A stretch of DNA of 64,000 nt from an uncultured Desulfobacteraceae bacterium (GCA_964442705.1 CAYUAQ010000005.1:1102-65101); one strand, 5' to 3'. Shown: positions 1 to 12,858, counted from the stretch's first letter. Made by a program: numbers and translations. The notes: generated by a model not told the origin, from the sequence alone.

Positions 1-91
1 CGATTGTTCTGTGCCGGCCGGATTTGGTTTATAGCGGCCGAAAGTTTTTGATCCCCTGTTTCAACCCATTATCGGAAGGAGGAGGACATCA

Positions 92-2002
92 ATGACCAAC
101 CCTTATGACATTGCCTTTAAACGTTCCATCGAAGACCCGGACGGCTTCTGGGCGGAGGCGGCGCAGAACTGCCACTGGTACAAGAAGTGGGACAAGGTTC
201 TGGACGACAGCAACAAGCCTTTTTACCGCTGGTTCACCGGCGGTGAGATCAACACCTGTTACAATGCCCTGGACTACCACATCGAACAGGGGCGTGGCGA
301 TCAGGCCGCCCTGATCTATGACAGTCCGGTGACCGACACCATCAAAACATACACCTATACCGAACTGCGGGATGAAGTGGCCCGATTCGCCGGGGTACTC
401 AAGGGACTCGGGGTTGAAAAAGGCGACCGCGTCCTGATTTACATGCCCATGATCCCCCAGGCGGCCATGGCCATGCTGGCCTGCGCCCGCATCGGTGCCG
501 TACACTCGGTGGTTTTCGGCGGGTTTGCGGCCAACGAACTGGCCACGCGCGTCAACGACGCCAAACCCAAGGTGATCGTTTCGGCCTCCTGCGGCATAGA
601 AGTCAAAAAGGTCATTGCCTACAAGCCGCTTCTGGATGAAGCCATCCAGATGTCGGATACCGACGCACGCCCCCAAAAGTGCGTCATTTTTCAGCGGCCC
701 ATGATCGAGGCCTCTCTGATAGAGGGCCGCGACCTGGACTGGGAATCGGCCATGGCGGATGCGCAGCCGGCCGACTGCGTGCCGGTGAAGGCCACCGACC
801 CGTTGTACATCCTGTACACCTCGGGCACCACCGGACAGCCCAAGGGCGTGGTTCGGGACAACGGCGGCCACGTGGTGGCCCTGAAGTGGAGCATGAAAGC
901 CATCTACAACGTGGACCCCGGTGACGTCTACTGGGCGGCTTCGGATGTGGGCTGGGTGGTCGGCCATTCCTACATCGTATACGGACCGCTTTTTCAGGGC
1001 TGCACCACCATTCTTTTCGAGGGCAAGCCCGTGGGTACGCCCGATGCCGGGGTGTTCTGGCGCGTCATCTCCCAGCACAAGGTCAACTGCCTGTTCACCG
1101 CGCCCACCGCTTTTCGGGCCATTAAACGCGAAGACCCCAACGGCGATCTGATCAAGGACTACGATCTGTCCTGTTTCCAGGCGCTGTTTCTGGCCGGAGA
1201 ACGGCTGGATCCCGACACCCTGAAATGGGCCCAGAGCAAACTGGGGGTACCGGTCATCGACCACTGGTGGCAGACCGAAACCGGATGGGCCATCTGCGCC
1301 AATTGCCTGGGGCTGCATCAGTTCCCGGTCAAGGAGGGATCTCCCACCAAACCGGCGCCCGGCTGGAATCTGTTCGTGGTAGACCCAGACAACAATCCCG
1401 TAAAAGCCGGTGAGATCGGCGCGCTGGTTGTCAAACTGCCGCTGCCACCGGGATCGTTGCCCACCCTCTGGAACAATGACGAACGTTACGTCGAATCCTA
1501 CCTCAAGGAGTTCCCGGGCTATTACAAGACCGCTGACGCCGGATACATCGATGAAGACGGCTATGTCTTCGTCATGGCCCGCACCGATGACATCATCAAC
1601 GTGGCCGGCCACCGTCTGTCCACCGGAGCCATGGAGGAAGTGCTGGCCGATCATCCGGATGTGGCCGAATGCGCCGTGCTGGGCGTGGAAGACAAACTCA
1701 AGGGACAGGTACCGGTGGGATTTCTGGTGCTCAACGCCGGTGTGACCCGCAGTCATGACGAGATCATCACCGAAGTCATACAGATGGTGCGCACCCGCAT
1801 CGGGCCGGTGGCCTCCTTCAAAACGGCCACCGTGGTCAAGCGACTGCCCAAAACCCGCTCCGGCAAAATCCTGCGGGGTACCATCCAGAAGATCGCGGAC
1901 AACAGGGAATTTAAAGTTCCGGCCACCATTGACGACCCCGCCACCCTCAGTGAAATGGAAGAGGCGCTGGAAAAAATCGGCTATGCCAAAGCCCGAAAGT
2001 AA
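92..2002 (+). CDS. prpE: Propionate--CoA ligase / AMP-forming short-chain acyl-CoA synthetase
   Basis: 636-aa ORF with ANL-superfamily motifs YTSGTTGQPKG, WWQTETG, DEDGY..ARTDD and PKTRSGKI. N-terminal FKRSIEDPDGFW and C-terminal IDDPATL resemble PrpE more than Acs (from memory of the E. coli proteins). GGAGGAGG Shine-Dalgarno at 78-85, 6 nt before ATG92. Confidence 0.88.
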   Translation: MTNPYDIAFKRSIEDPDGFWAEAAQNCHWYKKWDKVLDDSNKPFYRWFTGGEINTCYNALDYHIEQGRGDQAALIYDSPVTDTIKTYTYTELRDEVARFAGVLKGLGVEKGDRVLIYMPMIPQAAMAMLACARIGAVHSVVFGGFAANELATRVNDAKPKVIVSASCGIEVKKVIAYKPLLDEAIQMSDTDARPQKCVIFQRPMIEASLIEGRDLDWESAMADAQPADCVPVKATDPLYILYTSGTTGQPKGVVRDNGGHVVALKWSMKAIYNVDPGDVYWAASDVGWVVGHSYIVYGPLFQGCTTILFEGKPVGTPDAGVFWRVISQHKVNCLFTAPTAFRAIKREDPNGDLIKDYDLSCFQALFLAGERLDPDTLKWAQSKLGVPVIDHWWQTETGWAICANCLGLHQFPVKEGSPTKPAPGWNLFVVDPDNNPVKAGEIGALVVKLPLPPGSLPTLWNNDERYVESYLKEFPGYYKTADAGYIDEDGYVFVMARTDDIINVAGHRLSTGAMEEVLADHPDVAECAVLGVEDKLKGQVPVGFLVLNAGVTRSHDEIITEVIQMVRTRIGPVASFKTATVVKRLPKTRSGKILRGTIQKIADNREFKVPATIDDPATLSEMEEALEKIGYAKARK

Positions 2003-2040
2003 ATAGCCGCCGCAGTTGATGATCTGCAGCAAGAAAAAGC

Positions 2041-2073
2041 CGGCCCTCTGATATAAAGTGGGCCGTCTTTTTT
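2041..2073 (+). terminator. Putative rho-independent terminator after prpE
   Basis: CGGCCC (2041-2046) pairs with GGGCCG (2060-2065) across a 13-nt loop, followed by TCTTTTTT. The stem is short and the loop long. Confidence 0.45.
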
Positions 2074-2166
2074 GAGTTATTAAAATTTGTTACGGATAAA
2101 AACCTAAGATAACACAACATACTTCTGGTGACTTTCTGGTTTCACGTCGGCAACAGGATCTGTACA

Positions 2167-2553
2167 ATGCCAAAGAAGATATTGATCGTTGATGACGAAC
2201 CCAGCATTGTGGCGCCGCTTCAGTTTCTGATGGAAAGGAGCGGCTACGAGGTCATGGTGGCTACCAGTGGCGAAAAAGCGCTCGAGATGATCAACGAAAA
2301 TCGGCCGGATCTGGTATTGCTGGATGTCATGCTGCCCGGCCTCAGCGGATTCGATGTCTGTCGCATGATACGCGAAGACAGTGAACTTGCCGGCACTCGT
2401 ATCATTCTGGTCACGGCTCTGGGACGAAGGGTCAACGTCGCCAAGGGTATGGCGCTGGGGGCCGACGATTACATTGTCAAACCCTTTGCCAATCAGGAAC
2501 TGGTCGCCAAGGTGAAACAGCTGCTGGATCCCCTTCATGAGACTGAAAAATAA
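2167..2553 (+). CDS. Single-domain response regulator (CheY-like receiver, no output domain)
   Basis: Start taken at MPKKILIVDDEPS (ATG2167) inside track ORF 2128-2553. Receiver signature present: acidic DDE, phospho-acceptor D in LVLLDVMLPG, T in ILVTA, K in IVKPF. About 128 aa. Confidence 0.85.
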   Translation: MPKKILIVDDEPSIVAPLQFLMERSGYEVMVATSGEKALEMINENRPDLVLLDVMLPGLSGFDVCRMIREDSELAGTRIILVTALGRRVNVAKGMALGADDYIVKPFANQELVAKVKQLLDPLHETEK

Positions 2554-4696
2554 ATTCTGGCTGCTGCTGGTCATACCGACGCTTTTCATGATCGCCATCA
2601 TTGTGATCATGGCGGTATTGTTCTGGCAGCAGATGACACCGCAACAGCGGGTTCTCTTTCTGGGCATCACTAAAGAATATTTCATTTATTTTTTCGGCGG
2701 CGCCATCTTTCTGGTGGCTGGTATCGGACTGCTGATCGACGGCATCATCAACACCTATGTCATTCCGGTGGCCAAGGTGGCTGAAGAAACGTCGGTGATC
2801 TTTTCGGTTAACCCTGGCCATCGCATCGCCCCCATCGGGGGCAGGGATATCCACAAACTGATCCACGCCATCAACGAGGGGGCCCAGCGTTACGAGGACT
2901 TGAAAAGCTCCGTGGACGAGGCCATCCGGCAGGCCAAAAGGGAGGTGGAAGAGGAAAAAAATCTGTTGGCCGGGCTCATGGCCGAACTTCCCGAGGGCGT
3001 TATCGTCTGCAACCGGGAAGGAAATATTCTGCTTTACAACCGACGGGTGATCCGCCTGCTGGTGGAAGGGTGCACACATGCCGCCGAAGCCGATGTAGAG
3101 CCCTTCATCGGGCTGGGGCGTTCGATTTCCGATATTATCGATGAGCACCTCATCTCCCATGCCATCGATGAGATCCTTTACAAATTGAAGCAGAAAGTGT
3201 CTCCCGTGGTTTCTCATTTCGTAATCACCAGTTGTGAAGATGCCCTGCTGGATGTCGAGGCCGCCCCTATTGTCGATCGGCAGAGACGTTTTAACGGCTT
3301 CATCCTGCTGATCCGGGATATCACCGAGCAGCTGAAAACCGACAGTCAGGTGGCCGCGCTGCTGCAGTCGCTCATTCGATCCATGCGGGCTTCGCTGGCC
3401 AGTATTCGATCGGCCATCGAAGCCATCGTCGAATTTCCGGACATGAATGAACGGCAGCTGGAAAACTTCAAGCGCATTATCCATGAAGAAGCCGTATCGT
3501 TGAGTGCCATACTGGAGGAAAATGCCAACGAGTATGCCGAACATATCCGCTCCCGCTGGCCGCTGATTTCCATCCGGGCCACCGAACTGGCCGACGCATT
3601 GATCAGCAGGGCATACCAGAAGCTGGGGCTGAAGGTCGACGGCGACTTGGTCGAAGCCGAGTGCTGGATTAAGGTCGACAGCTACGCTTTCATCCTCAGC
3701 CTTCTCTATCTGCTGGACCGGCTGCAGGAGACCGTCAAGGCGAAAAAATACAGCCTCAGCATCCAGGTTGAGGATTGCCTGGCAGCCATCGATATCGCCT
3801 GGCAGGGCAAGACCATTGCCCAGCAGGAGCTAAAAAAGTGGTGCCGGAAGACCATTTGCGTCGGCAGGGAGGCCCTGGCCCTGACCATGGAGGAGCTGTT
3901 GTCCCATCACGAAGCCGAGATATGGAGCTGCCCACCGGAAAACGGAAGCCCGGGGGCGCACATCCGCATCGCCCTTCCGGCGGCCGACACCTGCCGACCG
4001 GATCAGATCGGCGGATTGACCATTTTGCCGGACAGCCGACCGGAGTTCTTCGACTTCGACCTGTTCCATCAGCCGGGCCAAACGCCGGACGTTGACAGTC
4101 AGCCGCTGGATCAGCTGTCCTATACGGTTTTCGACACAGAGACCACGGGTCTGGACCCCCGGGGAGGCGACGAGATCATCTCCATCGGTGCGGTGCGTAT
4201 TATCAATGGGCGCATATTGCGAAACGAACGTTTCGACCAGCTCATCGACCCGCGGCGGGCGCTGCCGCCGGAGTCCACCCGTATCCACGGCATCCGCCCC
4301 GACATGCTGGCGGGGCAGCCCCCTATTGAAGAGGTGCTGCCCCGGTTTCATCAATTCGCCCGGGACACGGTCCTGGTGGCCCACAATGCCGCTTTCGACA
4401 TGCAGATGCTCAAGATGAAGGAGGAATTGACGGGGGTCAAATTCATCAATCCGGTGCTGGACACCCTGCTGTTGTCCGCCGTGGTTCATCCCGCCCAGGA
4501 GGATCACAGTATGGAGGCCATGGCACAGCGCCTGGGGGTAAATATCGTCGGGCGGCACACCGCCATCGGGGATGCGCTTTCCACGGCGGAGCTTTTTCTG
4601 AAACTCATCCCCCTGCTTTTTCAGCAGGGCATTCGAACGCTGAAAGAAGCCCGTCTGGCCTCCCGAAAAACCTACTATGCGCGATTGAAATATTAG
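2537..4696 (+). CDS. Membrane-anchored sensor-like protein: 2 TM + HAMP/PAS-like region + degenerate HisKA/HATPase core + DEDDh (DnaQ/epsilon-like) 3'-5' exonuclease
   Basis: 719-aa ORF with N-terminal hydrophobic helices. DHp-like SLIRSMRASLASIRSAIE lacks the His. The ATPase boxes are degenerate. The C-terminal exonuclease motifs are intact: FDTETTGL, VAHNAAFD, HTAIGDA. The ATG overlaps the receiver gene by 17 nt. Confidence 0.85.
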   Translation: MRLKNKFWLLLVIPTLFMIAIIVIMAVLFWQQMTPQQRVLFLGITKEYFIYFFGGAIFLVAGIGLLIDGIINTYVIPVAKVAEETSVIFSVNPGHRIAPIGGRDIHKLIHAINEGAQRYEDLKSSVDEAIRQAKREVEEEKNLLAGLMAELPEGVIVCNREGNILLYNRRVIRLLVEGCTHAAEADVEPFIGLGRSISDIIDEHLISHAIDEILYKLKQKVSPVVSHFVITSCEDALLDVEAAPIVDRQRRFNGFILLIRDITEQLKTDSQVAALLQSLIRSMRASLASIRSAIEAIVEFPDMNERQLENFKRIIHEEAVSLSAILEENANEYAEHIRSRWPLISIRATELADALISRAYQKLGLKVDGDLVEAECWIKVDSYAFILSLLYLLDRLQETVKAKKYSLSIQVEDCLAAIDIAWQGKTIAQQELKKWCRKTICVGREALALTMEELLSHHEAEIWSCPPENGSPGAHIRIALPAADTCRPDQIGGLTILPDSRPEFFDFDLFHQPGQTPDVDSQPLDQLSYTVFDTETTGLDPRGGDEIISIGAVRIINGRILRNERFDQLIDPRRALPPESTRIHGIRPDMLAGQPPIEEVLPRFHQFARDTVLVAHNAAFDMQMLKMKEELTGVKFINPVLDTLLLSAVVHPAQEDHSMEAMAQRLGVNIVGRHTAIGDALSTAELFLKLIPLLFQQGIRTLKEARLASRKTYYARLKY

Positions 4697-4799
4697 CGAT
4701 GCAGTTATCGGCTACCGCTAAACGGCTGCCAATAAAAATAGGCTGAAAAGGCCGTCCCATTTTTTTGTTTCTTGGCGACCGCAATTCAAACGCGGTGCA

Positions 4800-7520
4800 C
4801 TAGGGTAGGGGAAGCGTAAAAGAGAAGGTGGCGCCCTGGCCGGGTCGGCTCTGCACCCAGATGCGTCCGCCGTGGTGCTCGATGATGCTTTTCACGATGG
4901 CCAGGCCCAGGCCCGACCCGGGAGGACGTCCCAGGCCGGAATGGCGGATCTGGCGGAACTTTTCAAAGATGATCTGCTGGTTTTCAGGCTGGATGCCGAT
5001 GCCGTTGTCCTGAACATCGATCCGCACCTCCCGTTCGGCTGCCGCCATGCGGATGCTAATCTGCCCCCCTGACTCGGGACAGAATTTCACGGCGTTTGAA
5101 ATCAGATTGACCATGACCTGGATCAAACGGTCACGATCACCTCTGACGGCCGGGGGCTTCGGTTTGATAGCGGTTTCCAGATGGATATTCTTCTCGCGGA
5201 TGAGCTGCCGGGTGGCATTGAGCGCATCGTTGATGACGTCACGCAGATCGACGTCGGTGGTCTGCCACTCCATCATCCCCGAATCCATTTTCTGAAAATC
5301 GAGCACCTGGGCAATCAATCGGGACAGGCGCTCGCTTTCCTTGAGTATGATGCCGGAAAAAGCGTTTTGTTTTTCGGGGGTCAGGTCCTCATTTTCATTG
5401 AGAATCTCTGCAATGGAACGAATCGAGGTGAGGGGAGTGCGCAGTTCATGGGTGACGGTGGAGATGAATTCGTCTTTGAGCCGATCGAGTTCCTGGAGCC
5501 GTTCATTGGCGGCGCGCAGCTCTATGGTCAGCTTCTCCAGCCGATGGCTGTAAGCAATCGCCTGGCGGGTTTCGTCCAGAATGTCCATCACTTCGTCTAT
5601 GCTGATGGGTTCCTCCTTGGCCACAGAGGACACCAGCACCCGGGCGGATGCCGACCCCACCGTGCCGGCCAGGAGCTGCTCCGAATAAGTGACAAAACCT
5701 GCGTCCGCGGGGATTTTATCGATGGTTCTGAACTGATGCTGGGCAGCATACTCGCGGAGCACTTCACGGGTACGTTTTTCACCCAGGAAGCGTGTGAGCA
5801 GTGCCCGCAGTTCACGGATGGAGGTTTCACCGCGCCACAGGGAGGTGCGGTCAACCGCCGGCGCTTCCCGGAAAATATCCACGAACAGGGCCGCCTGGGC
5901 ATGCTCCAAGGCCGAGGGACGGCTGAAGAGCGACCCCCCTACATACCCGGCCAGGTTGATCAGCAGGCTCCAGCAAATGGCATTGGCGATATGGTCCGTG
6001 GGCGTGATACCGATATCCAGGCCAAACAGTTGATGCGGCTTCAGCAGAGAAATCCCCCAAGGGCCTTCCAGCACGAACTGGCGTGACAAAAGACCGGCCT
6101 CGGCCAGAGACGGCAGGAAGAGGGTGTAAGCCCAGACGCCGAAACCGGCCAGCAGCCCCCACAGGGCTCCCGTACGTGTGCCCCGTTTCCAGAAGATGCC
6201 GCCGATGATGGCCGGTGCAAACTGGGCCACGGCCGTAAAAGACACCATGCCGATGGACACCAGGGTCAGAAACCTGGCGATGAAATGAAAGTACGCGTAC
6301 CCCATCAGCAGGATCAGCACGATACTGCCGCGACGGATGCTCAGCAGAAGACCGCTGAGTTCTTTCTGGCGCGAAAAAAAGGGATGCGGAATCCGCAGCA
6401 GTATGGGCATCACCAGGTCGTTGCAGATCATGGTGGACAGGGCCATGGTTTCAACGATGACCATGCCGGTGGCCGCCGACAGGCCGCCGATGAAAACGAA
6501 CAGCGCCAACCCTTCCTGCTGTGCCGACATGGGCAGCGTCAGCACAAACGTATCAGCGTCCACCGACCCGGGGGCAAAACGAAGCAGTCCGCCGAAGGTC
6601 ACCGGCAGAACGAAAATATTGATGGCCAGCAGGTAGAGCGGAAACAGCCAGATGGCCTTACCAAGGTGTTTTTCGTCGACGTTTTCCACCACCGTGACCT
6701 GGAACTGCCTGGGAAGCAGCACCACCGCCATCATGGAGACGAAGATATACATGTACCAACCGGAGTAGGCGGCGGCACTGGTATCCATGGACCACAGGCT
6801 GCGAAAGGCGGCCACCTCTCCTGCCCGGGCAAAGATATCATCGACCCCGTTGAATAATCCGAATGTCACAAAAACACCCACTGCCAGGAAGGCCAGCAGC
6901 TTGACGATGGACTCAAAGGCAATGGCGGCGACGATCCCCTCGTGCCGCTCGGTGGCCTCCAGGTTCCGGGTTCCGAAAAGAATGGCGAAAACGGCCAGCA
7001 GCATGGCCACGTAGAAAGCGGTGTCATGAAAAACCGGAATATCACTGAAGAGGTGGGCCGACCCGAAATGGGGATAATGCTTGATGAGCAGATAACTGGC
7101 CGATATGGCTTTTAGCTGCAGCGCGATGTAGGGGACTACACCGACGACCGCCATTATCGTGGCAATACCCCCCAGCACGGAACTCTTGCCGTAACGTGAG
7201 GCGATAAAATCGGCGATGGAGGTGATGCTGTGAGTTTTGCTGATGCGGATGATTTTGCGCAACACCATCCACCCCAGCGTCATCATGAGGGTAGGACCAA
7301 TATAGATGGGCAGAAAACCGACGCCGGTTTTAGCCGCACGCCCGACGCTGCCGTAGAAAGTCCAGGCGGTACAGTACACGGCCAGGGAGAGGGCATAGAT
7401 GTAAGGATTGCTGATGATACTGCGGCCGGATTCGGCAGCCTTGTCACCGTAAAAAGCGATGGCGAAAAGGATGCCGATATAACCGAACGAACACAGGAGG
7501 ATGGTTCCTGTCTGCAGCAT
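4800..7520 (-). CDS. Sensor histidine kinase with N-terminal Na+/solute symporter (SSS/SLC5)-like domain (CbrA/CrbS-type architecture, no receiver domain)
   Basis: 906-aa ORF. About 500 aa of polytopic SSS-like membrane domain, a linker, then a canonical HisKA (FISTVTHELRTPLTSIRS) and HATPase_c (NLISNAVKF, DNGIGI, GSGLGLAI). Confidence 0.9.
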   Translation of the reverse strand: MLQTGTILLCSFGYIGILFAIAFYGDKAAESGRSIISNPYIYALSLAVYCTAWTFYGSVGRAAKTGVGFLPIYIGPTLMMTLGWMVLRKIIRISKTHSITSIADFIASRYGKSSVLGGIATIMAVVGVVPYIALQLKAISASYLLIKHYPHFGSAHLFSDIPVFHDTAFYVAMLLAVFAILFGTRNLEATERHEGIVAAIAFESIVKLLAFLAVGVFVTFGLFNGVDDIFARAGEVAAFRSLWSMDTSAAAYSGWYMYIFVSMMAVVLLPRQFQVTVVENVDEKHLGKAIWLFPLYLLAINIFVLPVTFGGLLRFAPGSVDADTFVLTLPMSAQQEGLALFVFIGGLSAATGMVIVETMALSTMICNDLVMPILLRIPHPFFSRQKELSGLLLSIRRGSIVLILLMGYAYFHFIARFLTLVSIGMVSFTAVAQFAPAIIGGIFWKRGTRTGALWGLLAGFGVWAYTLFLPSLAEAGLLSRQFVLEGPWGISLLKPHQLFGLDIGITPTDHIANAICWSLLINLAGYVGGSLFSRPSALEHAQAALFVDIFREAPAVDRTSLWRGETSIRELRALLTRFLGEKRTREVLREYAAQHQFRTIDKIPADAGFVTYSEQLLAGTVGSASARVLVSSVAKEEPISIDEVMDILDETRQAIAYSHRLEKLTIELRAANERLQELDRLKDEFISTVTHELRTPLTSIRSIAEILNENEDLTPEKQNAFSGIILKESERLSRLIAQVLDFQKMDSGMMEWQTTDVDLRDVINDALNATRQLIREKNIHLETAIKPKPPAVRGDRDRLIQVMVNLISNAVKFCPESGGQISIRMAAAEREVRIDVQDNGIGIQPENQQIIFEKFRQIRHSGLGRPPGSGLGLAIVKSIIEHHGGRIWVQSRPGQGATFSFTLPLP

Positions 7521-7555
7521 GGAATTTCCCGTTAACTTTGTGCCTTATCCGGACT

Positions 7556-7753
7556 TCATGGACGTTCCTTGGTGATCCACGACGTCAGGAGAATGATAGA
7601 CAGCCAGGCGGCAAACAGGTAAACGTAAAAAAGGGGAATACCCATGAAGAGGGTATCCATATTGAACAGGGAAAGCAGTGGATAGTTGAACAGCACCAGC
7701 CCGATCAGAAATACGGCCACCAGGCGGCCATTTTTCAGCTTGTCTCTGGTCAT
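7556..7753 (-). CDS. Small two-TM membrane protein immediately upstream of the transporter-kinase (DUF3311/CbrX-like position)
   Basis: 65-aa ORF with two hydrophobic helices (VAVFLIGLVLFNYPLLSLF; LFYVYLFAAWLSIILL). It ends 35 nt before the kinase start on the same strand. Confidence 0.5.
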   Translation of the reverse strand: MTRDKLKNGRLVAVFLIGLVLFNYPLLSLFNMDTLFMGIPLFYVYLFAAWLSIILLTSWITKERP

Positions 7754-7981
7754 GATGAAGCCCCCCTTTCGTCTTTCGGCAGTCGCATGGTGCAGGTTGC
7801 CATCAGGCCGGATACCCGCTATTGTTTATATGGAAAATCAGGTGCCCTGTCAACGAGCGCCGGGGAACATCGCCAAACTACAGCGGCCGGGGGCGCTGTT
7901 TTTCCTTGGAAAGCACCGGAAACCGTGCTAACCAGATTCAATTCGGCATCACCAATGTAACCAGGGGCTCAGGAGGAGCGT

Positions 7982-10324
7982 GTGATGAGTACCCAAGCAT
8001 TTCAGTTTTTAAAGACCATCCCTATTTTCGCTTCGTTGCCGAAGCATGAACTGGACAACATTGCCAAGCATGTTTACGTCAAGAAATCCCCCCGGGGGAC
8101 AATTCTGGCCCACCAGGGAAAGACTCCCATCGAGGATATTTTTATCCTGAAGAGCGGCATGCTGGAGCTGTTCTATACCAACGTCAAGGGGGAAAAAATA
8201 CTGAGCGGCAACCTGCAGTCGGGCGATATTTTCGGTGGTATTTCGCTGCTCATGAACGCCGGCTTGGCGGTGAGGACGGTTACTGTGGAAAGGGACGCGT
8301 CCTTTTACCTGCTTCCCAAAGACCTGTTTCTTGAACTGTGTGGACGTTACAAAACTTTTTATCAGTATTTCGTTGATGCGTTCAGTCAGCGCATGCTGGA
8401 CGAATCATACGCCAGTATCATCGGAGCCACCCAGGCGTTAAACTTCCTGTCCCAGACGGTGCCCTTCTCTTTTCTGCCCGATAACTTGCGCAAGCAGGCC
8501 GCTGACCAGGTATCCCTGATTCACTATGCCCAGGACACCGTACTGTGCATCCAGGGCAAAACCGAACTGGAACATCTGTACATCATCCAGAAGGGGGCGG
8601 CCGAACGGTACTACGAGAAGGACGGCAAGAAAACGCTCAAGGGCCTCATGGGTGAGGGCGACATCTTCGGCGGCATCTCTATCCTGCTCAACCGCGGGAT
8701 TGCCGTCAGATCGTTGCGCACCATAGAGGATGCGTACATCTACCTGCTTCCCAGAAACGTTTTTCTGGAGATTTGTGAGTCTCACGAACCTTTCAGCGAA
8801 TATTTTACCGATACTTTTGGCAAGCGCATGCTGGACAAATCCTACCGGTCCATCATCGCCCAGAGCCTGCGGCCGCGAGAAGACGAACTGCCTTTTCTGA
8901 ACCAGGCCGTGTCCACCATCGTACAGACCGATATCGTGCACTGCCCCCCGGATACCAGCATTCAGGAAGCTGCTTCGGTGATGAAACGCCACGGGTGCAG
9001 CTCGATATTTGTCAGAGAGGACGATGGCCGCTATACGGGCGTCATCACGGACAACGACATGCGCAACAGAGTGATTGCCGATGGTTACGATATTCATCGG
9101 CCGGTTTCCGACATCATGTCATCGCCGCTCATAACGGTGCCTTCGGATGCGCTCATATTCGAGGCGCTGATGACCATGATGCAGCACAACATCAAGCATC
9201 TGGCGGTGACTGACGCCGATGCCCATGTGGTGGGAATCCTCAGCAACCAGGACCTCATCAATGCGCAGGGAAACTCACCGCTTTTCCTCATCCGCAGTAT
9301 TAATACGGCAACATCGATGGAAGACCTCACGGATGTACAGGCCAGACTGCCTCATCTCGCCAAGGGATTGATCAGCAGCGGGGCCAAAGCACGCAACGTG
9401 ACACGGCTTATCACCACCGTTGCGGATGCGGTGCTGAAAAAAATCGTTGGGTTTGCCCTCGACGAACTGGGGGCGCCGCCGGCCCGGTTCGCCTTCATGA
9501 TCATGGGCAGCGAAGGTCGCCGAGAGCAGACCTTTAAAACTGATCAGGACAATGCCATCGTTTTCGAAGATGTTGCACCGGAAAAGGCAGAGGAAGTGAA
9601 AGCCTATTTCCTGCGTTTCGGCGAACTGGTGTGCGGCTGGCTGGATCAGGCCGGATACGCCTTCTGTCAGGGAGGGGTAATGGCCAAAAACCCCCGATGG
9701 TGCCAGTCCCTGACATCCTGGAAAAAGGATTTTTCCAACTGGATTCACGCGGCCGAACCGGAAGACCTGCTGCAGTCCAGCATTTTTTTTGATTTCCGGG
9801 GGGGATACGGTGATATGTCGCTGATCGATGAACTGCGCGGCTACCTCTTCGACTCGCTGAAAGGCTGGGCCGGGTTCTTTCGGCATCTCACCGAAAACGC
9901 CCTCCATTTCAGGCCGCCCATTGGATTCTTCCGAAACTTCGTGGTGGAATCCAAGGGTAAACACCGCAATGCGTTCGACATCAAAGGCGCGTTAATGCCC
10001 ATCGTGGACTTCGCCCGTATCTATGCGTTGAAGCATGGCATCGATGAAACCAACACCCTGGACCGCCTGCAGCAGCTATCCGTAATGGGAGCGCTTTCCT
10101 GGGAGGAGTACAACGAACTCGAGCAGTCTTACTGTTTCATGATGCAGTTGCGCTTCGTACGGCAGATTACGGCGGTTCTGGACGAAAATCAAAAGCCGGA
10201 CAACTATATCAACCCCAAGAAACTGTCACGTATTGAACAGACCATGCTGCGGGAAATCTTCAAGCGCATCGAAAAGTACCAGTCCAAGTTGGAGATCGAT
10301 TTCACAGGAGTTGCGTGGGCTTGA
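7982..10324 (+). CDS. Signal-transduction nucleotidyltransferase: 2x cNMP-binding-like + CBS pair + DUF294 NTase + DUF294_C
   Basis: 780-aa ORF. Two beta-barrel cNMP-like domains (GDIFGGISLL..AVRTV and GDIFGGISILL..AVRSL) and a CBS pair. Pol-beta-type NTase motif GSEGRREQTFKTDQDNAI. AGGAGG lies upstream; the true start may be ATG7985. Confidence 0.9.
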   Translation: MMSTQAFQFLKTIPIFASLPKHELDNIAKHVYVKKSPRGTILAHQGKTPIEDIFILKSGMLELFYTNVKGEKILSGNLQSGDIFGGISLLMNAGLAVRTVTVERDASFYLLPKDLFLELCGRYKTFYQYFVDAFSQRMLDESYASIIGATQALNFLSQTVPFSFLPDNLRKQAADQVSLIHYAQDTVLCIQGKTELEHLYIIQKGAAERYYEKDGKKTLKGLMGEGDIFGGISILLNRGIAVRSLRTIEDAYIYLLPRNVFLEICESHEPFSEYFTDTFGKRMLDKSYRSIIAQSLRPREDELPFLNQAVSTIVQTDIVHCPPDTSIQEAASVMKRHGCSSIFVREDDGRYTGVITDNDMRNRVIADGYDIHRPVSDIMSSPLITVPSDALIFEALMTMMQHNIKHLAVTDADAHVVGILSNQDLINAQGNSPLFLIRSINTATSMEDLTDVQARLPHLAKGLISSGAKARNVTRLITTVADAVLKKIVGFALDELGAPPARFAFMIMGSEGRREQTFKTDQDNAIVFEDVAPEKAEEVKAYFLRFGELVCGWLDQAGYAFCQGGVMAKNPRWCQSLTSWKKDFSNWIHAAEPEDLLQSSIFFDFRGGYGDMSLIDELRGYLFDSLKGWAGFFRHLTENALHFRPPIGFFRNFVVESKGKHRNAFDIKGALMPIVDFARIYALKHGIDETNTLDRLQQLSVMGALSWEEYNELEQSYCFMMQLRFVRQITAVLDENQKPDNYINPKKLSRIEQTMLREIFKRIEKYQSKLEIDFTGVAWA

Positions 10325-10385
10325 TGCGCCTTGTAACAGGGGCCTTTCCACAGGGAAATCTTCGGCCGGATTCTCCTGACTCTTC

Positions 10386-11507
10386 ATGAAATCATCCGAT
10401 TTGGTCGCCATGAAAATTTCCAAATTCTACGTCCATCAGGAAGTCAGTGAACATGAACAGGTGCGGCGGTTCCAGAAACGGCTGAAACTCTCTGCGGCCA
10501 TCGTCAGGGATGTCACTGAGGTTTATCGACACGTGATGGCATCCGACGATCCCATAGGCGCCGGAAAGCAGACCCTTTTTCTGACCAGAAACAGGGGGCC
10601 GTTCGTACGCCAATGCCCGGGTACACGCCACTACCTGTGCTGTGGTTACCGGATTCTGCATATCGGCACCTACTGCACCATGGATTGTGCCTACTGTATT
10701 CTGCAGTCTTACTTCCATCCACCGCTGCTGCAGTTCTTTGTCAACCAGGAGGATCTCCACCGGGAACTCGATGATTTTTTCCGGCAACCCGGCGTCAAAC
10801 GGATCGGCACCGGGGAATTTACAGACAGCCTCATATGGCAGATGTGGACGGATATCGGTGGCCGGCTGGTAGAGCGTTTCGCCCGCCAGGAAAATGCCGT
10901 GCTGGAACTCAAAACCAAAACCACCGCCGTGGAGGCCTTCAAGGGGCGCCGGCACAACCGTAAGACCATCATGGCCTGGTCGCTGAATACCCCCCGCGTG
11001 ATAGCGTCTGAAGAGCGGGGGACCGCCAGCTTGGCGGCCCGTCTCGATAGTGCGCGCAGGTGCGAGCAGTGGGGCTATCCCCTGGCGTTTCATTTTGACC
11101 CCATGGTGATCTACGACGGATGCCGTGAAGAGTACCTGCAGGTTGTCGATCAACTGTTCCGTAACATTTCTGCCGGAAATGTGGTATGGATCAGCCTGGG
11201 CAGTTTGCGTTTCATGCCGTCCCTGAAGGTCATCATCGAAAATCGTTTTCCCCGGTCTAAAATTGCATATGGTGAATTCGTAGGCGGTTTGGACGGAAAG
11301 ATGCGCTATTTCAAACGTCTCAGGATTGGTTTGTACCGCAGCATGGTAGCACATATTCGGACCCTGGCACCCGACGTGAACGTGTATTTCTGCATGGAAG
11401 ATGAAGAGGTCTGGCAGCAGGCTTTTGGTTTCGCCCCTAAAGATCCGCATGGCATCGCGGAGATGCTGGACCGCAGTGCGGTTCGGCATTGCGGGTTGAA
11501 GTTATGA
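10386..11507 (+). CDS. Radical SAM protein, spore-photoproduct-lyase-like (SplB/COG1533 family)
   Basis: 373-aa ORF with a CX3CX2C cluster in GTYCTMDCAYCILQSYF. Size and layout are typical of SPL-family DNA repair lyases. An alternative start is ATG10410. Confidence 0.72.
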   Translation: MKSSDLVAMKISKFYVHQEVSEHEQVRRFQKRLKLSAAIVRDVTEVYRHVMASDDPIGAGKQTLFLTRNRGPFVRQCPGTRHYLCCGYRILHIGTYCTMDCAYCILQSYFHPPLLQFFVNQEDLHRELDDFFRQPGVKRIGTGEFTDSLIWQMWTDIGGRLVERFARQENAVLELKTKTTAVEAFKGRRHNRKTIMAWSLNTPRVIASEERGTASLAARLDSARRCEQWGYPLAFHFDPMVIYDGCREEYLQVVDQLFRNISAGNVVWISLGSLRFMPSLKVIIENRFPRSKIAYGEFVGGLDGKMRYFKRLRIGLYRSMVAHIRTLAPDVNVYFCMEDEEVWQQAFGFAPKDPHGIAEMLDRSAVRHCGLKL

Positions 11508-11536
11508 TAGCAAACTACCGATATGACTATCAGAGA

Positions 11537-12196
11537 ATGAATTACAAGACACTGCTGACGTGTCTGGTCCTGGTGGTGACAGGCATCAGCTTGCAAAGCG
11601 GGTACGCCGCGGAGACGGTGGTGCACGTCAAACGGGTCAATGATGGTGATACCATCACGTTGACGGATGGACGTCTGGTTCGGTATATAGGCGTGGATAC
11701 ACCCGAGATCGATTACGAGAGACGCAGGGCTGAACCGCTGGCTTATGAGGCCAGGGATTTCAACCGGATCATGCTGAAGGCGGGAGGGGTTCGACTGGAA
11801 TTCGACAGGCAGACAAAAGACGGTTACGGCCGGACACTGGCCTATGTCTTTTTACGTGACGGTACTTTTGTAAATGCTGAAATACTGAGACAGGGATATG
11901 GATTTTTTCTGCCGACGGGTAAGAACAACCGTTACGGGAGGAAGCTGCTGGAAGCTCAGCGTGAGGCCATGTCGGCTGGGCGGGGGATCTGGAGAAACTG
12001 GCGGGAAACGGGGAAAAGGGGCTATATCGGAAATCGACGCTCTATGCGGCTGCATCTGAGAACATGCCCTTCGGCAGCCGGCATATCGAGATCCAACCGG
12101 GTGTATTTCAAGACCAGCTGGGATGCGTTCTGGAAAGGGTATGCACCGGCCAGGGGATGTATGAAACCGAAAAGATCAAAATGGACAAGAAAATAG
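11537..12196 (+). CDS. Secreted thermonuclease (staphylococcal-nuclease fold) with C-terminal Cys/His-rich tail
   Basis: Start taken at MNYKTLLTCLVLVVTGISLQSGYA|AE, a signal peptide. SNase catalytic pattern present: VNDGDTITL, YIGVDTPE, GRTLAYVF, NAEILRQGYG. The tail is HLRTCPSA...ARGC. Confidence 0.85.
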   Translation: MNYKTLLTCLVLVVTGISLQSGYAAETVVHVKRVNDGDTITLTDGRLVRYIGVDTPEIDYERRRAEPLAYEARDFNRIMLKAGGVRLEFDRQTKDGYGRTLAYVFLRDGTFVNAEILRQGYGFFLPTGKNNRYGRKLLEAQREAMSAGRGIWRNWRETGKRGYIGNRRSMRLHLRTCPSAAGISRSNRVYFKTSWDAFWKGYAPARGCMKPKRSKWTRK

Positions 12197-12858
12197 AAGT
12201 CATTCAGACGCTTTTGAAGCACCGCAACCATGAGGTTGAGGAAATTAAGAACGGTTGCCGTCTGAAACTGAATCTCGATGATCAGAAGTGTAGCGTAGAC
12301 TTTTACATACTGCTGAGTGCGCCTGACCAGATCCGCGTCAAAGTGACCATCGACGGTATCAAGAATGTGGAGCATTCGGTCCAGCTTCAAACGGTGCAGG
12401 ACCTGCTGGAAGAGGCGCTCAGAGGGGCGGCAGCGGTGGAGAAACTGAGTTTTTTCGGACCGCGCGGGTCGTCCTCTATTTTCTATGCCCGTGTTTTCAT
12501 GGACAGGGACCCGCAAGTCGTGTTGAGCCGCTTTGAGGCGGCTGAACGTGCCTTTACCCAGTTGCAGGGGCTGGATTCAAAAAAATTCAGGCGGAACCTG
12601 GACCGGTTGGGATTGCCCCGTTCCAGCACCGTGCGGGTGGCACTGGCCAGGATTTTCAGGGAATCCATTGACGCCCAGGAATTGCTGGCGACGGTGGACA
12701 GCGAAGCCCGCAAAATCGTACACAGCGACCAGTGGCGCACACTGCGGGAGATCCGCTCCAAGAAGCAGCTTTCGGCAGCCAATTACATCATCGATCTGCT
12801 CTGGGAAGAGATCAGCCGAACCTTTATCGAACGCGCGCGCCAGGAGCTGAACGGATAG
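12181..12858 (+). CDS. Hypothetical cytoplasmic protein; start overlaps the nuclease stop
   Basis: Track ORF 12064-12858. ATG12181 (MDKKIEVIQ) overlaps the nuclease 3' end by 16 nt. I saw no signal peptide and no recognisable motif. Confidence 0.55.
   Translation: MDKKIEVIQTLLKHRNHEVEEIKNGCRLKLNLDDQKCSVDFYILLSAPDQIRVKVTIDGIKNVEHSVQLQTVQDLLEEALRGAAAVEKLSFFGPRGSSSIFYARVFMDRDPQVVLSRFEAAERAFTQLQGLDSKKFRRNLDRLGLPRSSTVRVALARIFRESIDAQELLATVDSEARKIVHSDQWRTLREIRSKKQLSAANYIIDLLWEEISRTFIERARQELNG

Follow-up and report, generated by a model that had tools for sequence, protein, structure and literature searches.

A stretch of 64,000 nucleotides from an uncultured Desulfobacteraceae bacterium (GCA_964442705.1, CAYUAQ010000005.1:1102-65101; hereafter the window) encodes an SSS-type sensor histidine kinase, a stand-alone receiver, a membrane-anchored sensor-exonuclease and a DUF294 nucleotidyltransferase (NTase), and these four genes form one cassette that is found across at least five phyla. 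The sensor-exonuclease appears to join a catalytically dead histidine kinase to an intact DEDDh exonuclease. The conservation of the four genes together and the paralogy of the dead kinase with the core of the neighboring kinase suggest that the output of the cassette is probably enzymatic, exerted through the receiver, rather than transcriptional. A DUF294/exonuclease pair under CrbS-type control is already known (the classical pair); for the four-gene cassette and the dead-kinase fusion, a search of the literature library used found no description.

Gene content and conservation of the cassette

Gene calls are based on an open reading frame (ORF) listing and on Pfam and NCBIfam scans of the window. 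The scans bear out, in position and in domain content, the five genes that an initial annotation of this DNA had named. The features of the region are as follows.

92-2002, plus strand: short-chain acyl-CoA synthetase, Acs/PrpE family, 636 amino acids (Pfam ACAS_N, AMP-binding and AMP-binding_C)
2128-2553, plus strand: stand-alone receiver, a single-domain response regulator (Pfam Response_reg, 3.6e-31)
2537-4696, plus strand: membrane-anchored sensor-exonuclease, 719 amino acids (Pfam RNase_T, DEDDh, 1.4e-39; PAS_4)
4800-7520, minus strand: SLC5/SSS-type sensor histidine kinase, 906 amino acids (Pfam SSF, weak; HisKA; HATPase_c)
7556-7753, minus strand: membrane mini-ORF, 65 amino acids, a two-helix hairpin (from the translation; faint DUF3311 match only)
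7982-10324, plus strand: DUF294 nucleotidyltransferase, 779-780 amino acids (Pfam two cNMP_binding, two CBS, DUF294, DUF294_C)

The kinase gene is convergent with the sensor-exonuclease gene, and the DUF294 gene is divergent from the kinase gene.

A scan using one genome per species gave 375 confirmed relatives of the sensor-exonuclease among the 600 pattern matches listed. Eighty loci were kept, and homologs of the window genes were located in them by tblastn; a subset of 46 loci has at least 6 kb upstream and at least 5.5 kb downstream of the exonuclease gene. The SSS kinase, the receiver and DUF294 are all present in 32 of these 46, at least one of them is present in 40, and six have none. 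In a set of 31 related genomes, a strong DUF294 match accompanies the full-length fusion in every one of the 12 that carry it, and the 11 genomes lacking DUF294 also lack the fusion (Fisher p = 0.0014). The association of the genes, which the initial annotation had proposed to check, is far beyond chance. DUF294 is encoded elsewhere in each of seven genomes that lack it beside the exonuclease gene (the six bare loci and a Pseudomonas), and the kinase is encoded elsewhere in both of the bare-locus genomes searched, in one of them next to DUF294.

The commonest gene orders are DUF294-kinase-receiver-exonuclease, kinase-receiver-exonuclease-DUF294 and Acs-kinase-receiver-exonuclease-DUF294, with recurrent orders spanning Desulfobacterales, Rhodocyclaceae, Thiothrix, Xanthobacter, Caldilineaceae and Nocardioidaceae. 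Carriers among the matches listed are Desulfobacterales, Rhodocyclaceae, Burkholderiales, Thiothrix, Competibacter and a Pseudomonas, as well as Xanthobacter, Chloroflexaceae, Caldilineaceae and Nocardioidaceae. By larger group, the cassette proteins co-occur in Desulfobacterales, in beta-, gamma- and alpha-proteobacteria, and in Chloroflexota and Actinomycetota. Cultured isolates among the carriers include Tepidicella xavieri DSM 19605, Ramlibacter aurantiacus AW1, Aquabacterium humicola, Piscinibacter aquaticus, Xanthobacter spp. and Pseudomonas sp. MMS21. The full-length sensor-exonuclease, at about 720 amino acids, has hundreds of relatives of like size. Its sensor part alone retrieves 302 clusters (50% identity) at E <= 1e-30, and since most of these are 700-730 amino acids long, the fusion is the rule.

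The sensor-exonuclease, the kinase and the receiver

Residues 124-481 of the sensor-exonuclease match the VicK sensor kinase by sequence alone. The AlphaFold2 model, with a mean predicted local distance difference test (pLDDT) score of 76.6, has two transmembrane helices followed by a long helix, a PAS domain (154-261), a two-helix DHp domain (263-336), an alpha/beta CA-like domain (344-483), a low-confidence linker and the exonuclease (529-719). The best Foldseek matches in the Protein Data Bank (PDB) for the first two thirds are WalK, VicK (4i5s), the YF1 LOV-kinase and the ThkA-TrrA complex, with E down to 4.5e-21, and the C-terminus superposes on Pol III epsilon (root-mean-square deviation about 2.2 Å) and PolC. 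The N-terminal two thirds are therefore best described, at the level of a model, as a predicted complete PAS-DHp-CA histidine-kinase fold that is catalytically dead. Across 80 homologs, the position of the phosphorylatable histidine is occupied by Glu in 54, Arg in 8 (including R281 of the window), Asp in 7 and His in 2. Of the 80, 74 retain the Arg of the HELR motif and 71 have Arg or Lys in place of the N-box Asn; G1 reads DxxWxG and G2 is lost. The HisKA phosphatase residues (Glu or Asp at H+1, Thr or Asn at H+4) are absent as well. Lacking these catalytic residues, the domain can act neither as a kinase nor, by the usual mechanism, as a phosphatase, and the "pseudo-kinase" call of the initial annotation agrees with a full kinase fold (AlphaFold2, Foldseek) that has no phospho-His, N-box Asn or G1/G2.

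A profile made from the DHp and CA regions of the sensor-exonuclease family was searched against all ORFs of the window's genome. It scores the neighboring SSS kinase at 61.7 bits (E 5.7e-17) and the next histidine-kinase-like ORF at 29.9 bits, which makes the dead kinase a paralogue of the core of its neighbor. The closest parallel considered is DivL-DivK of Caulobacter (PMC4211667), in which a histidine pseudokinase senses whether a single-domain response regulator is phosphorylated. Both have a histidine-kinase fold without a phospho-His, in the present case as a proposed input surface for the phosphorylated receiver. DivL, however, has a Tyr at the His position and signals to the kinase CckA, whereas the window family has Glu, Asp or Arg there, has lost the ATP boxes and carries a fused hydrolase.

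The exonuclease domain is predicted to be a catalytically intact DEDDh (DnaQ-like) enzyme, with D533, E535, D621, H674 and D679 (DxE, D, H-x4-D) conserved in 80 of 80 homologs. It is nearest to the PolC/epsilon proofreading domains and is 39% identical to the T. maritima PolC exonuclease in the Foldseek alignment.

Several other parts of the sensor-exonuclease are also conserved. The linker between the CA domain and the exonuclease (window 4034-4066, residues 500-510), disordered in the AlphaFold2 model, contains a near-invariant S-R-P-E-[YF]-[YF]-D-F-D-L-F, in which R501 is found in 78 and F507, L509 and F510 in all 80 of the homologs. Its DFDLF portion is loosely like the beta-clamp-binding pentapeptide QL[SD]LF; the motif is absent from the single short classical exonuclease sequence examined (L085). 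The C-terminal tail KTYYARLKY is conserved too. In the sensor part (window 2537-3330), N92, P93, H95, R96 and G101 of the juxtamembrane loop are invariant or nearly so, as are E150, C158, N159, G192, G194 and R195 of the PAS core, which includes one invariant Cys; these juxtamembrane and PAS residues suggest a conserved cytoplasmic ligand or contact. The sensor and dead-kinase part occurs alone as a 470-amino-acid ORF in one relative (G007:C2:2054-3439), and the exonuclease domain alone, at 75% identity, as a 179-amino-acid ORF in another (G011:C1:2354715-2355245). Either ORF could result from a split gene, a frameshift or an assembly artefact.

The kinase in the window is the sole SSS kinase in its genome. 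Its SSF match is under the gathering score (E 2.3e-4), the HisKA and HATPase_c matches are strong, and the H (THELRTPLTSI), N (NLISNAVKF), G1 (DNGIGI) and G2 (GSGLGLAI) boxes are canonical. It has no receiver domain, the chain ending after HATPase_c at residue 906. Over residues 2-666 it shares 42% identity with a 1158-amino-acid hybrid SSS kinase of the CrbS/MxtR type, with a receiver domain, from Pseudomonas sp. MMS21, vs 34% identity with a CbrA-type kinase of the same strain, suggesting that it is a receiver-less relative or paralogue of CrbS. As in CrbS/CrbR (MxtR/ErdR), an SLC5-like membrane domain precedes HisKA and HATPase_c and the context is acs-related. CrbS, however, has a C-terminal receiver and a LuxR-type partner, and the window kinase has neither; its neighbor is a single-domain receiver, and a mini-ORF precedes it as in cbrX-cbrA.

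The receiver has the DD pair, D66, T96 and K118, which are conserved in 65 orthologs, and its likely start is the ATG at 2167 (128 amino acids). The nearest other receiver of this genome, on contig C45, is 53% identical. Its gene lies directly 5' of the exonuclease gene in most loci, overlapping it by 17 nt here and in L002 and by 4 nt in about 20, and the two genes are translationally coupled. The single-domain receiver is the sole regulator found beside the kinase in the cassette, both in the window and in three relatives' loci with full gene lists examined, and no DNA-binding regulator turned up in those three loci.

The mini-ORF lies 35 nt 5' of the kinase gene, and comparable ORFs of 78-89 amino acids are present 5' of the kinase gene in L001 and L004. 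A 2026 cryo-EM preprint reports that CbrX binds the SLC5 domain of CbrA (PMC13022988). The mini-ORF is a positional analogue of CbrX, both being two-helix membrane mini-proteins of about 60-90 amino acids encoded directly 5' of an SLC5-type kinase, but no sequence similarity between them is shown beyond the faint DUF3311 match of the mini-ORF, and the genes here are spaced apart rather than overlapping.

The DUF294 protein and its carboxylate context

An AGGAGG ribosome-binding site favors a DUF294 start at 7985. The protein scores 165.3 bits with DUF294 and 155.5 bits with DUF294_C (PF03445 and PF10335, cut-offs 21 and 22.5), and its AlphaFold2 model has a pLDDT of 83.6. The cNMP-like pockets read IFGGISLL and IFGGISIL, with FGG where CAP and PKA have FGE, and their phosphate-binding Arg is shifted three residues further along. 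Both motifs quoted in the initial annotation, the FGGISLL-type pocket and the GS...DxD of the NTase, are present, and in the latter G508, S509, D520 and D522 (GS...DQD) are invariant in 34 of 34 DUF294 homologs. The replacement of GE by GG, which the annotation had pointed out as non-canonical, is family-wide: a classical DUF294 relative with one cNMP domain likewise has FGG, so the odd pocket is a family trait.

In most related genomes the PF03445 profile also matches, at E values of about 1e-4 to 1e-6, one ORF of about 850-945 amino acids (usually 870-920). The ORF of this genome reads as GlnD, since it has GGYGRREQCIHSDVDLLFL, an HD region and C-terminal ACT-like repeats. The counterpart of GGYGRREQCIHSDVDLLFL in the window DUF294 protein is GSEGRREQTFKTDQDNAIVF, and the NTase motif GSEGRREQ..TDQD of DUF294 parallels GGYGRREQ..SDVD of this GlnD. 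When the catalytic half of DUF294 was compared by hhalign with the N-termini of nine GlnD proteins, the probability was 84.5% (E 6.9e-6, 194 columns). The NTase core and a helical domain with a conserved Lys both fall within the alignment; these features appear to be shared with GlnD and GlnE, and Pfam places DUF294_C in the same clan (CL0291) as the GlnD/GlnE C-terminal domain (PMC3710099). The catalytic part of DUF294 thus appears, from sequence comparison, to resemble GlnD/GlnE. A sequence-profile search of the PDB with the NTase and C-terminal region gave nothing significant, and with the whole DUF294 model all 50 Foldseek matches listed are tandem cNMP-domain proteins, such as PKA/PKG regulatory subunits and Epac.

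In Pseudomonas, MxtR/ErdR (CrbS/CrbR) directly targets an operon that pairs a DUF294 gene with a single cNMP domain and a gene for a short exonuclease, the targets named being PP_0354/PP_0353 (PMC9927547) and Pflu5625 (PMC5715377). PA3232-PA3235, including actP, is upregulated about 16-fold on propionate (PMC9765439). The initial annotation had named a link of such genes to acs/actP and their control by symporter-type kinases, and the literature confirms both (PMC9765439, PMC9927547, PMC5715377 and a September 2026 preprint, bioRxiv 10.64898/2026.09.07.749794). Its remark that the pair has no established function also stands, as the same preprint describes the function as unclear, proposing protein modification on the model of PII uridylylation.

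The classical Pseudomonas pair and the window share the same two enzyme families, a setting of genes for uptake and activation of acetate, propionate and pyruvate, and control by an SLC5-type kinase, which in the window is a proposal. The classical exonuclease, however, is a soluble protein of about 235-280 amino acids encoded directly after a one-cNMP DUF294 gene, whereas in the window it is fused to the transmembrane, PAS and dead-kinase regions and the DUF294 protein has two cNMP-like domains. The classical pair is also transcriptionally controlled via CrbR, while the window has a stand-alone receiver, a receiver-less kinase and no DNA-binding regulator seen in the cluster. Classical pairs are present in three Desulfobacterales genomes (L085-L087) and twice in Pseudomonas sp. 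MMS21 (L090, L091). The latter strain also has a kinase-receiver-sensor-exonuclease cassette with no adjacent DUF294 (L016), and its two classical pairs, one of them by a VC_2705-family symporter, are accompanied by the CrbS-type hybrid kinase and CbrA/CbrB (L088-L091). It is a cultured strain holding both wiring types, in which a comparison is possible.

The ligase at 92-2002 had been labeled prpE, a name that is not upheld at the equivalog level. The NCBIfam PrpE equivalog models NF007815 and TIGR02316 are its top-scoring models yet both fall under their cut-offs (771.1 vs 955 and 720.3 vs 827.4 bits). Only the Acs subfamily model NF001208 is passed (664.7 vs 657 bits), so that the protein is more safely called a short-chain acyl-CoA synthetase. 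It has the conserved SGK acetylation-site motif. Orthologs of the ligase, about 80% identical, hold the same position in L002-L005, L008 and L019, and an Acs-family gene lies within 10 kb in at least 20 of the 80 sensor-exonuclease loci. The window begins 1.1 kb inside its contig, and the preceding stretch encodes the C-terminal half of an SSS-family transporter. This transporter gene just upstream, the Acs-family neighbors and the MxtR/ErdR-controlled, propionate-induced classical pair link the cassette to carboxylates.

Named relatives at about 45-50% identity belong to Desulfobacterales and Desulfococcaceae, so the host is Desulfobacterales-like and not a gamma-proteobacterium. Over positions 1-12500, a promoter scan gave 8 promoter-like sites vs 7.4 expected, which is chance level, a terminator scan found none convincing between the ligase and receiver genes, and an Rfam scan (E <= 0.1) had zero matches. 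An SPL-like radical-SAM gene and then a secreted-type SNase nuclease gene lie 3' of the cassette (window 10386-12196). The radical-SAM gene is 3' of the cassette in six Desulfobacterales loci (L001, L005, L007, L009, L014 and L022), usually directly after the DUF294 gene, and the SNase gene was also found in L005, L009 and L014. Neither gene was found in beta-, gamma- or alpha-proteobacterial cassette loci, and this neighborhood is lineage-specific synteny.

Proposed mechanism and alternatives

A tentative reading, credible though short of likely, is that the genes form a carboxylate-responsive signaling cassette with a full chain from the kinase to the control of nucleotidylylation. The SLC5-type kinase, with its small membrane partner, would sense the availability or flux of short-chain carboxylates, as its kinship with CrbS/MxtR suggests. 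It would autophosphorylate and pass the phosphoryl group to the stand-alone receiver; the needed residues are present in both, and their conserved adjacency points to a partnership. By analogy with DivL-DivK (PMC4211667), the phosphorylated receiver may dock on the dead DHp/CA region and switch the DEDDh hydrolase on or off, and the PAS domain may add a second, cytoplasmic input. DUF294 would be a GlnD/GlnE-type nucleotidyltransferase gated by the CBS pair (adenylate charge) and by the non-canonical cNMP-like modules. In the least secure step, DUF294 would add a nucleoside monophosphate (NMP) to a carboxylate uptake or activation protein, with the adjacent Acs/PrpE-like ligase and the SSS transporter as candidate targets, and the exonuclease would hydrolyze the phosphodiester. 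The initial annotation had put forward such a writer/eraser pair; its reading is partly supported, and the idea is plausible in that it would fit both the GlnD-like kinship of DUF294 and the published phenotypes. Whereas the Pseudomonas and Vibrio pair is controlled transcriptionally from CrbS to CrbR, control here would be post-translational.

The main argument for a protein target is that the characterized members of the GlnD group (GlnD, GlnE and DrrA) nucleotidylylate proteins. GlnD and GlnE carry out reversible nucleotidylylation of a metabolic protein in response to metabolite sensors, but each carries its own removing activity (in an HD domain or a second NTase-like domain), whereas the remover proposed here is a separate DEDDh exonuclease, which would be without precedent. 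Hydrolysis of a Tyr/Thr-O-P-5'-nucleoside bond with release of NMP would parallel the exonuclease reaction chemically. Removal of NMP marks by the exonuclease is nevertheless rated lower than the rest and seems doubtful, because we know of no DEDDh/DnaQ-type enzyme that hydrolyzes protein-NMP adducts. An undescribed two-component output, in which the phosphorylated receiver acts via the dead-kinase scaffold to switch a membrane-tethered DEDDh protein de-nucleotidylylase that erases the AMP or UMP marks of DUF294, is in our judgment unlikely. Such marks would sit on a carboxylate transporter or acyl-CoA synthetase, and the inputs would be carboxylate flux, adenylate charge and a nucleotide-like ligand.

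Several further observations weigh against the proposed chain. The PolC/epsilon proofreading domains, to which this exonuclease is nearest, act on nucleic-acid 3' ends. Partner specificity is usually set by residues of DHp helix 1, and these are only partly common to the kinase and the dead kinase. Across 53 loci, the identity of DHp helix 1 between kinase and dead kinase is 0.259 for same-locus and 0.268 for cross-locus pairs (permutation p = 0.996); since same-locus pairs are no more alike, docking of the receiver on the dead kinase draws no support from covariation, a result that is neither for nor against a shared receiver. The dead kinase could pair with the SSS kinase itself instead. The cassette is also split over different contigs or loci in several genomes. 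In P. putida growing on pyruvate, deletion of PP_0353 (the exonuclease) delays growth and deletion of PP_0354 (the NTase) has little effect (PMC9927547). A larger defect on loss of the exonuclease than of the NTase is the pattern expected if an inhibitory mark can no longer be removed, but the phenotypes are mild and fit a model with the exonuclease as effector equally well.

That model is the main rival to a writer/eraser pair, although it too is rather unlikely. The membrane-tethered exonuclease would degrade or mature particular RNAs (or DNA ends) that affect carboxylate metabolism, with DUF294 as its regulator or as a parallel actor; the phosphorylated receiver would switch the exonuclease via the dead-kinase scaffold, and DUF294 would nucleotidylylate the exonuclease, much as MNT enzymes modify HEPN RNase toxins, or act on another target. 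The HEPN/KNTase_C clan includes DUF294_C and also the proteins that partner MNT nucleotidyltransferases (PMC3710099). The exonuclease domain is, by its residues, a canonical and fully intact 3'-5' exonuclease of the DnaQ/PolC type, the DUF294 and exonuclease genes stand side by side without exception in the five classical loci inspected (L085, L086, L087, L090 and L091), and the authors of the P. putida study, in which the exonuclease mutant has the clearer phenotype, proposed mRNA degradation (PMC9927547). However, no RNA target or motif is evident, Rfam finding nothing in 1-12500, a membrane anchor is unusual for an RNA-processing exonuclease, and no residue stands out as a modification site common to the fused and short exonucleases.

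It is also conceivable, but improbable, that the pair remodels the 3' end of an RNA (or DNA), DUF294 extending it with untemplated nucleotides that the exonuclease cuts back, with the kinase-receiver pair and the CBS and cNMP domains setting the balance. The CCA-adding enzyme and RNase T add and trim nucleotides on tRNA in this way, both pol-beta-fold NTases and DEDDh exonucleases include nucleic-acid 3'-end enzymes, and the two enzymes strictly co-occur. The DUF294 catalytic region, however, aligns with GlnD, including the Lys motif of the helical domain, and not with CCA-adding enzymes or poly(A) polymerases, and the profile search of PDB sequences found no nucleic-acid polymerase.

Less probable still is a small linear or cyclic nucleotide messenger that is made by DUF294, degraded by the exonuclease and sensed by the odd cNMP-like domains. 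Their ligand may be neither cAMP nor cGMP, since their pockets have GG for GE and an Arg shifted three residues onward, and Foldseek puts the tandem domains near the nucleoside-binding, cAMP-independent PKA regulatory subunits of trypanosomes; the DEDDh class includes enzymes, oligoribonuclease among them, that break down short nucleotide signals. Many cassette-linked DUF294 proteins, however, are about 480-500 amino acids long and lack cNMP domains entirely, no messenger synthase is known from the GlnD/GlnE-like group, and no receptor protein is evident. That the genes are mere neighbors in a common location or regulon, with no action on one another, would suit the split cassettes of L020, L025, L028, L056, L057 and L070 and the reported placement of the kinase and DUF294 genes on different strands from the receiver and exonuclease genes (in the list above this holds for the kinase gene), but it is very improbable given conservation across at least five phyla despite rearrangement, the translational coupling of receiver and exonuclease, the paralogy of the dead kinase with the neighboring kinase core, and the agreement of presence and absence across related genomes (12 of 12 vs 0 of 11).

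Few genes in Pseudomonas and Vibrio depend as strongly on the acetate-switch regulator as the DUF294/exonuclease pair, yet its role has eluded genetic study for about a decade. In the cassette, a symporter-type kinase appears to control both enzymes directly at the protein level, and the cassette offers cleaner experimental handles than the classical pair, namely a dedicated kinase-receiver pair, a dead-kinase docking surface and several cultured hosts. If the exonuclease is indeed a de-nucleotidylylase, the DnaQ fold would gain an activity new to it, and two-component systems a new class of output. The breadth of the family, with at least 300 clusters (50% identity) matching the sensor part alone in at least five phyla, points to a general post-translational control of short-chain acid assimilation.

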